Origin: a virus | Lineage: Duplodnaviria; Heunggongvirae; Uroviricota; Caudoviricetes | Reading direction: 5' to 3' (one strand) | DNA length: 4,785 nucleotides | IMG/VR virus record: IMGVR_UViG_2534681831_000038 | In this document: in pieces, positions 3,537 to 4,785 of the stretch | Layout of the letters: every line of letters starts with the position of its first letter | Position numbering within the stretch: the first letter of the stretch is position 1 | Translations under genes and position numbers: made by a program | The notes under the pieces: generated by a model | The model's input: only the letters and a program-made list of their open reading frames with translations | Told to the model about the DNA's origin: nothing | The model's database searches: none

Positions 3537-3959
3537 TCAGCTGATACTGATACCTGCTGTGGATTTTTTCATCACCACAACCAGCAGATCGCTGATACTG
3601 GTTGTTGGTGTCCAGTTATTCGCTCCTGATGAAGATACGGTGAATGTCAGTGTCAGCGTCCCCTGTCCGGCAGGCATATCTATAACTGAGGAAAATACGC
3701 CCTGAACATCCGTCGTGGACTGATTAAAAATCTCCTGACCATTGCGGGTCACTCTTAACCGGCAGGTTGAATACCAGTATGACTGTTGGTTATTACTGTT
3801 GAAATTCTCATGCTTACCACCGCGGAATAACACTGGCGGTATCATGACCTGCCGGTCAAACTTCTGATCATCACTGATTCTTACCGTGATGGTGCCACTG
3901 GCATAAGTGCTCGTGCGGGGGAAAGACTTGCTGACCGTTTTGACAATATCGCCTTCAAT
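3537..3959 (-). CDS. J: C-terminal segment of tail-tip host-specificity protein J, in a different frame from the upstream part of the gene
   Basis: The minus-strand frame is open from 3959 to the stop at 3537-3539 and translates [53 protein letters not shown]...[21 protein letters not shown]...[14 protein letters not shown]. This parallels the lambda J C-terminus I recall (IVGDIVKAASAAFPRQ...SRIVDMPAGRGNVILTFTLTS...VMVIKKQALGISVV). The frame is closed upstream by TAG at 3960-3962. The ORF track shows only the part after the first Met (3537..3845). Confidence 0.75.
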
Positions 3960-4785
3960 CTAGGTTGGCTGGCAGTTTCCCCTTAATCTGACAGTTCTCA
4001 TTAATCGTGACGTTGTTGAGCGTCCCTGAGTTCGCATTCACACTGCCACTGATATCCGCATCTTTCGCCGTCAGTCGCCCGTCCGGCGTCAGGGAAAATG
4101 CCGGAGGATTGCCGGATGACGTGATGCTCACCGCAAACAGTCGTTTCAGGAACACGTCGTTCATGAACAGCTGATTCCCCTGCGCCACAAATAACGGCGT
4201 GCTGTTGCCGCTCTCCGGATTTATCATCGCGATACGGTCAGCCAGCAGCAGTATGTTGCTCAGTGGCTGGCCATCAGTATCCTCAATCCCTGCACCAATC
4301 CCGGCCACATAGGGAATGCCGTCTTTCGTTTTTTGAACCTTCAGCATGTACAGCGCAGCCAGGTCATCATTTGTGTCCTTCTGCACGCGCTGTATCTGCT
4401 GTATGGTGGCGCTCTGGTCCTCCAGCGTTTTACTGACCGTCTGTGTGATTTCATTGCGGGTTTCCGTGATGCTGGTCTTCATCTCCGCCATCTCATCTGC
4501 AAGCTGGCTGTTATCTATCAGTTCCCACAACCCCTGAGCCAGATGCAGTTTTCCTATTTTTTCCCGGAAAAATTCCAGATACCCTTCACCATCATTGCTG
4601 GGCTGCCCGCTGACTTCCACAAACGCAGATTTCCCCACCAGGTTGACGCTGCGCACGTAAAACCAGAAATCCTTCCCGGGCTTAATGTGCGGGCCGGATA
4701 CACTCCACTGACTGCCGGTCCCCAGATAACTGGCAGAGGTTTCCACCTGAGATGTGTCTGCGATTTTTGCCTCCGAAAACCAGAA
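3955..4785 (-). CDS. J: Tail-tip host-specificity protein J, 3' portion; 5' end lies beyond the window and the frame ends prematurely at 3955-3957
   Basis: The minus-strand frame is open from the window edge ([27 protein letters not shown]...) down to TGA at 3955-3957. The end ...[39 protein letters not shown] parallels lambda J (...[40 protein letters not shown] as recalled). The track's start at 4746 is an internal GTG, not the real start. Confidence 0.85.

Follow-up and report, generated by a model that had tools for sequence, protein, structure and literature searches.

A one-base frameshift in the tail-tip gene J of an Escherichia coli O111:H8 prophage is most likely an error of the draft assembly

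The tail-tip attachment gene J present in the 4,785-nt stretch of phage DNA analysed here (referred to as the window) is split in two frames by a single extra base, a T at position 3962 of the coding strand (A on the plus strand). This frameshift is most likely not a real feature of the organism. With high confidence, it can be attributed to a consensus error of the draft genome of E. coli DEC8B in a poorly resolved repeat, since the gene is intact in the finished genome of this strain and in thousands of related copies. The split itself is read deterministically from the sequence, a situation in which chance is irrelevant, and the question is whether T3962 exists in the organism.

At the level of the reading frames, J lies on the minus strand and enters at the window edge (4785), ending at a TGA codon in 3957-3955 (...KGKLPANLD*). 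The frame carrying the remainder of the gene is closed upstream by a TAG in 3962-3960, after which ATT (3959-3957) is codon 1 of 140 codons that run down to the stop at 3539-3537 (...STAGISIS*). No continuous frame leads through the receptor-binding domain of J in the window, the interruption being confined to 3955-3962. An earlier note on this DNA, made by a model from the letters and a list of open reading frames, had described both stops and the 140 codons, and every one of its coordinates was correct when the frames were re-read. Its claim that a single extra base splits the gene was confirmed by alignment with three homologues in which the gene is unbroken, namely those of E. coli O111:H8 strain 8B, strain 2013C-3342 and phage phi330; this alignment assigns the extra base to position 3962. 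The segment AACCAGATT (N-Q-I) of the intact gene appears as AACCTAGATT in the window, and the codons GCC AAC CAG ATT GAA (A-N-Q-I-E) consequently become GCC AAC CTA GAT TGA. The earlier proposal that removal of one base around 3958-3961 would restore the junction ...ANLIEGDIVK... holds as regards the continuous frame but not as regards the position, which is T3962, or the residue, which is Q instead of L; the repaired protein reads ...KL(S/P)ANQIEGDIVK... across the junction. The lambda counterpart that had been given for comparison, ...TLRAEKIVGDIVK..., is the right one. The break falls after N1017 of the 1158-aa J of strain 8B, that is, at about residue 993 of lambda J. As had also been pointed out, the insertion creates a CTAG tetranucleotide, which is palindromic and hence present on both strands; the window holds four such sites in all (378, 962, 1033 and 3960), as compared to about 18 expected from base composition. 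Beyond the J stop, at a distance of 19 nt and between J and lom, the minus strand carries an 8-bp, GC-rich hairpin (3499-3518) followed by TTTTTATT. Given this terminator-like element with its T-run, the downstream piece represents the natural end of the J transcription unit. The features of the window are collected in Table 1.

Table 1. Coordinates of the features discussed in the text (window positions; plus-strand numbering)
Feature	Position	Strand	Evidence or remark
Extra base	3962	minus	Alignments with three intact homologues and pairwise difference lists; seen at 0 of 2,508 corresponding places (1,221 complete E. coli genomes)
Premature TGA closing the upstream J frame	3955-3957	minus	...KGKLPANLD*
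CTAG made by the insertion	3960-3963	both	4 in window vs ~18 expected
J (gpJ, tail tip attachment protein), internal part to N1017 plus out-of-frame L-D-stop	3955-4785	minus	Ig_J_second and Phage_Tail_Tip domains
Last 140 codons of J with their stop, one base out of frame	3537-3959	minus	Pfam Ig_GpJ_C, of the OmpC-using A8 type
Terminator-like hairpin	3499-3518	minus	GGGCGCCAGAAATGGCGCCT then TTTTTATT, 3' of the true J stop
Draft-only substitution, C for T (Ser to Pro), 10 nt 5' of the insertion	3972	minus	In 0 of 2,508 places
Draft-only substitution, G for A (Asn to Asp)	4062	minus	In 0 of 5,557 places
A4498 and T4530, paralogous (nleL-prophage type) J state; orthologous nleC-prophage state is G, G	4498-4530	minus	Copy comparison
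lom (Ail/Lom outer-membrane protein)	2870-3469	minus	Paralogue-type base at 3173 (synonymous)
Side tail fibre gene (phage_tail_N, collagen repeats, Phage_fiber_C)	1690-2811	minus	IS1203 in the complete genome at the equivalent of 1700-1702
Small tail-fibre C-terminal-domain ORF with second draft-only indel	1420-1688	minus	Loss of one A at 1680/1681
nleC (type III effector zinc protease, Peptidase_M85), cargo gene at prophage end	1-987	minus	Identical to the complete genome

Concerning the origin of this DNA, the window matches the final 4,785 nt of contig AIGG01000039.1 (49,212 nt) of assembly GCA_000249815.2 with 100% identity. The contig ends 2 nt past window position 4785, and the insertion is located 826 nt from that end. 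The genes called on the contig at this locus encode products of 263, 102, 199, 371, 82 and 328 aa. GCA_000249815.2 is the assembly of E. coli DEC8B (PMC7693793), an O111:H8 strain of human origin from Idaho, 1986 (PMC2211750), and the AIGG accession falls within the range of the DECA draft collection (PMC3558956). A complete genome, CP077473, is on record as "E. coli O111:H8 strain 8B", human, USA: Idaho, and agrees with DEC8B in name, serotype, host and state. A search for papers that cite CP077473 gave none. Among 5,426 complete E. coli genomes CP077473 is by far the closest to the draft sequence, with 99.9% identity over the whole window against 99.1% for the runner-up. Its prophage occupies the same locus beside nleC-yodB-zinT and is 99.8% identical at the DNA level over J, lom and the side tail fibre gene (stf). 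Unlike in the draft, gpJ is annotated in CP077473 as one intact CDS of 1158 aa (WP_423740653.1), without a T at the equivalent of 3962 and with Ser in place of Pro, Asn in place of Asp and Val in place of Leu. A second, independent assembly of this strain thus lacks the frameshift. The earlier note had named a single continuous J frame upon resequencing as the observation that would speak against its reading, and CP077473 amounts in effect to such an observation.

The distribution of the discrepancies is informative about where they come from. Over 11,251 nt compared between the draft and CP077473 there are seven differences, and all seven are confined to the 3,108 nt that adjoin the contig end, an arrangement with a probability of about 1e-4 under uniform chance, (3108/11251)^7. 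The remaining 8,143 nt, which take in the tail-fibre C ORF, nleC, yodB, zinT, msrQP, hiuH and hprR, show no substitutions, the sole nearby discrepancy being a 1-nt deletion at the very start of that stretch. The 3,108 nt that carry the differences correspond to the multi-copy J-lom-stf module: a J query finds eight places in the genome of strain 8B, and the junction between stf and tfa occurs at a median of nine places per genome. The insertion therefore belongs to a repeat with many copies, near the end of a contig, and the discrepancies between draft and complete genome cluster in this repeat, some of them with the states of paralogous copies.

Four of the seven differences are exclusive to the draft and appear in none of the 2,500-5,800 homologous places found in the 5,426 complete E. 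coli genomes. A 74-nt query spanning the insertion matches 2,508 places in 1,221 of these genomes with a best identity of 97.3%, which means that every one of those places lacks both T3962 and C3972. In the same way, G4062 was found in none of 5,557 homologous places of complete E. coli genomes, and the deletion at 1680/1681 in none of 5,841. The 263-aa frameshift product (...PANLD) is on record in one contig alone, AIGG01000039.1, and 30-41-mers bearing the insertion gave no exact match in genome, metagenome or viral contig collections. The mutation is accordingly shared neither with relatives (0 of the 2,508 places) nor with other public data beyond this one contig. A different pattern is displayed by T4530 and A4498, which match a paralogous J copy of the nleL-prophage type at 100% in 93 records. 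The G/G that the complete genome carries at these two positions is the orthologous nleC-prophage state of J, present in 11 O111 records; the idea that G at 4530 was an oddity of the complete genome was rejected on this ground. A3173, in lom, is likewise paralogue-type and differs synonymously from the complete genome. The second prophage copy of strain 8B was also considered as the source of the draft-only differences and discarded, as only 4530, 4498 and 3173 are paralogue-type and these match an nleL-prophage-type copy. Since these three positions hold paralogue bases where the orthologous states differ, the end of the draft contig is a mosaic of copies, and such a mosaic together with a few spurious bases is what a repeat merged during assembly looks like.

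The second indel exclusive to the draft affects the small tail-fibre ORF. The loss of one A at 1681/1680 changes ATG AAT ATA CTA AAA into ATG AAT ATC TAA and constitutes a second frameshift, which removes the start of an 89-aa ORF encoding a tail-fibre C-terminal domain and leaves an 82-aa ORF from the ATG at 1668; this internal ATG is often picked by gene callers in intact genomes too. The adjacent stf ORF of 373 aa is recorded as 371 aa because a different start was called. It contains collagen-like Gly-X-Y repeats, and its counterpart in strain 2009C-3675 has 437 aa, the 64-aa length difference being an in-frame polymorphism in the repeat region. In the complete genome stf is interrupted by IS1203 (IS3 family, 1.3 kb; 9457-10766 of locus L029), with a 3-bp overlap consistent with a target duplication. 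The draft contig presents instead an empty site at 1700-1702, 20 nt away from the 1680/1681 indel. Either transposition has made the stocks differ here, or a paralogous copy was used to close the site in the draft. Further along, nleC bears the HEIIH motif and adjoins yodB-zinT at the prophage end, and the 432 nt preceding it (988-1419) contain no convincing ORF and no Rfam match.

The identity of the gene is clear in spite of its split. When the frame is repaired, the resulting 415-aa J fragment matches the Pfam families Ig_J_second (2e-25), Phage_Tail_Tip (7e-24) and Ig_GpJ_C (1e-36), families that are also recorded for the split J genes of the draft contig. Ig_GpJ_C spans residues 292-415 of the fragment, which places the break about 15 residues upstream of the receptor-binding domain; that it lies upstream of this domain had been said in the earlier note. 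The gene order tail assembly protein I - J - lom - side tail fibre is found in CP077473 and other records, with lom and stf lying in the window. By domains and synteny the gene is therefore a member of the lambda gpJ family, the only feature that fails being the continuous frame, which is restored in the complete genome. Lambda J itself (UniProt P03749; PDB 8iyk, 8xcg and 8xcj) has the same position between I and lom-stf, the same Pfam domains and 43 of 53 identical residues immediately ahead of the site, the conserved (I/V)(E/G)GDIVK junction among them. Past the site the two proteins diverge, with indels and 60 of 135 aligned residues identical (44%), in agreement with the earlier remark that the C-terminus is unlike that of lambda.

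The C-terminal domain of lambda J binds LamB. The corresponding domain of the J studied here belongs with a different protein, A8 gpJ, an engineered fusion of lambda gpJ at residue 964 to the gpJ C-terminus of a natural E. coli prophage, which permits DNA delivery via OmpC in cells deleted for lamB (Brodel et al. 2024, Nature; PMC11338833). From NNVTINEN to the C-terminus, 155 of 159 residues (97.5%) are identical between the two proteins (PDB 9wca/9wcb, "A8 gpJ 713"; the count refers to the donor part of 9wca_J), and one of the four differing residues is the Ser-to-Pro change exclusive to the draft. While A8 gpJ is a construct, the gene in the window is of the natural type from which its donor part was taken. 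On the strength of this near-identity, the receptor of this J is most probably OmpC and not one of the LamB class, and the earlier suggestion of a receptor other than LamB thus appears likely to be right.

Genuinely degraded J genes are found in related prophages. A second prophage of strains 8B and 95NR1 retains a C-terminal J remnant of 360-366 aa (L006, 4851-5933; L008, 4833-5933). In this prophage the remnant comes directly after lysis and antirepressor genes and is followed by the same lom, a 371-aa tail fibre gene and an NleG effector gene; head and most tail genes have been deleted, and the element is truly defective. In strain 95-3192 (CP027362; L026, 9926) a homologous J is split independently into 1043 + 102 aa by the loss of one C from a run of five (TTTCCCCCGC to TTTCCCCGC) some 40 nt downstream of the present site, a loss that could be a real slippage mutation or a homopolymer error of long reads. 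These cases resemble the gene in the window in that J is lost or split in lambdoid prophages with lom-stf-effector modules. They differ in their support, as the same remnant recurs in two finished genomes (8B and 95NR1) whereas the insertion described here occurs in one draft contig only. With genuinely degraded J genes so close at hand, this frameshift would be commonplace even if it were real.

Several explanations compete for the extra base. A real frameshift, private to the DEC8B stock sequenced for the 2012 draft and missing from the stock that gave the complete genome, is the chief competitor but unlikely. It would truncate J after residue 1017, remove the OmpC-binding domain and leave virions of the nleC prophage incapable of adsorption. 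In favour of this reading, a deposited assembly contains the base, the IS1203 difference is compatible with divergence of stocks, and both the J split of strain 95-3192 and the remnant of just 360 aa kept by another prophage of the same strain show the gene to be disrupted independently elsewhere. Tail genes of lambdoid prophages in EHEC are, besides, often inactivated. Against this, a private mutation would have to be accompanied by others, to a total of two indels and two non-synonymous substitutions, all four unique, and three further changes of paralogue type in 3.1 kb, while the adjoining 8.1 kb are identical between the assemblies; no plausible rate of mutation in the laboratory comes near such a load. 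These changes moreover fall exactly in the multi-copy part at the contig end, and none of the four unique ones is seen in any other genome. Of the two branches that the earlier note had left, a defective prophage and a sequencing error, the evidence favours the error, the defective prophage being disfavoured by the intact gpJ in the complete genome of the same strain. It is even less credible that the complete genome is the one at fault, the frameshift being real and an intact J having been restored by polishing with reads of a paralogous copy. Multi-copy regions of long-read assemblies are also liable to mis-polishing, but CP077473 displays at 4530/4498 the bases specific to the nleC prophage, as 11 other O111 records do, and all four draft-only bases would need to be real and yet invisible in it; this correct resolution of copy-specific bases makes the possibility very remote. 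Programmed +1 ribosomal frameshifting, or another form of recoding at CCT-AGA/CTA-GAT leading to a full-length J, has nothing in its favour beyond the two overlapping frames. A real site of this kind would be common to relatives, whereas all 2,508 homologous places lack the extra base and keep J in a single frame, and the window contains no Rfam element. This complete lack of conservation excludes programmed frameshifting for practical purposes.

A consensus error in the draft remains the explanation that best accommodates these observations. The J-lom-tail-fibre module exists in about eight or more near-identical prophage copies per EHEC genome, and the draft consensus at this module probably mixed reads of paralogous copies and took up spurious bases as well, among them the extra T3962 and the missing A at 1680/1681. 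The latter lies near the IS1203 site, a junction that the assembler of the draft would have had to bridge. The real gene would then be an ordinary intact J of the lambda type, 1158 aa long, with a C-terminal domain of the OmpC-recognising type. From the comparison of the deposited sequences we infer that the discrepancies most likely arose in assembly or consensus calling and not in cells. Some observations go against this reading. A homopolymer is the classic context of such errors, and neither indel (3962 or 1680/1681) lies in one; J has been disrupted independently in other genomes, as in strain 95-3192; and the IS1203 difference could mean that the stocks behind the two DNA preparations had diverged, which would make real differences possible. 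The want of a homopolymer at either indel and the IS1203 difference are among the reasons why confidence in a consensus error is high but not higher.

With regard to the practical side, the DEC8B draft still serves as a reference, for instance in RNA-seq (PMC7693793), and its annotation wrongly presents J and the small tail-fibre ORF as split or truncated. It follows as a caution that frameshifts at the end of a draft contig in multi-copy prophage genes should not be equated with prophage decay unless reads or a second assembly are at hand. If T3962 were real, the EHEC strain would simply count one more defective lambdoid prophage. Taken together with the second private frameshift in the small tail-fibre ORF, a real T3962 would mean that the OmpC-binding tip of the nleC prophage has just been disabled, and the draft would have captured the first step in locking an effector-carrying phage into the chromosome, a doubtful prospect on the present evidence. 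The useful positive result is that this J probably belongs, judging by its C-terminal residues, to the OmpC-using (A8-type) class of receptor-binding proteins and not to the LamB class.
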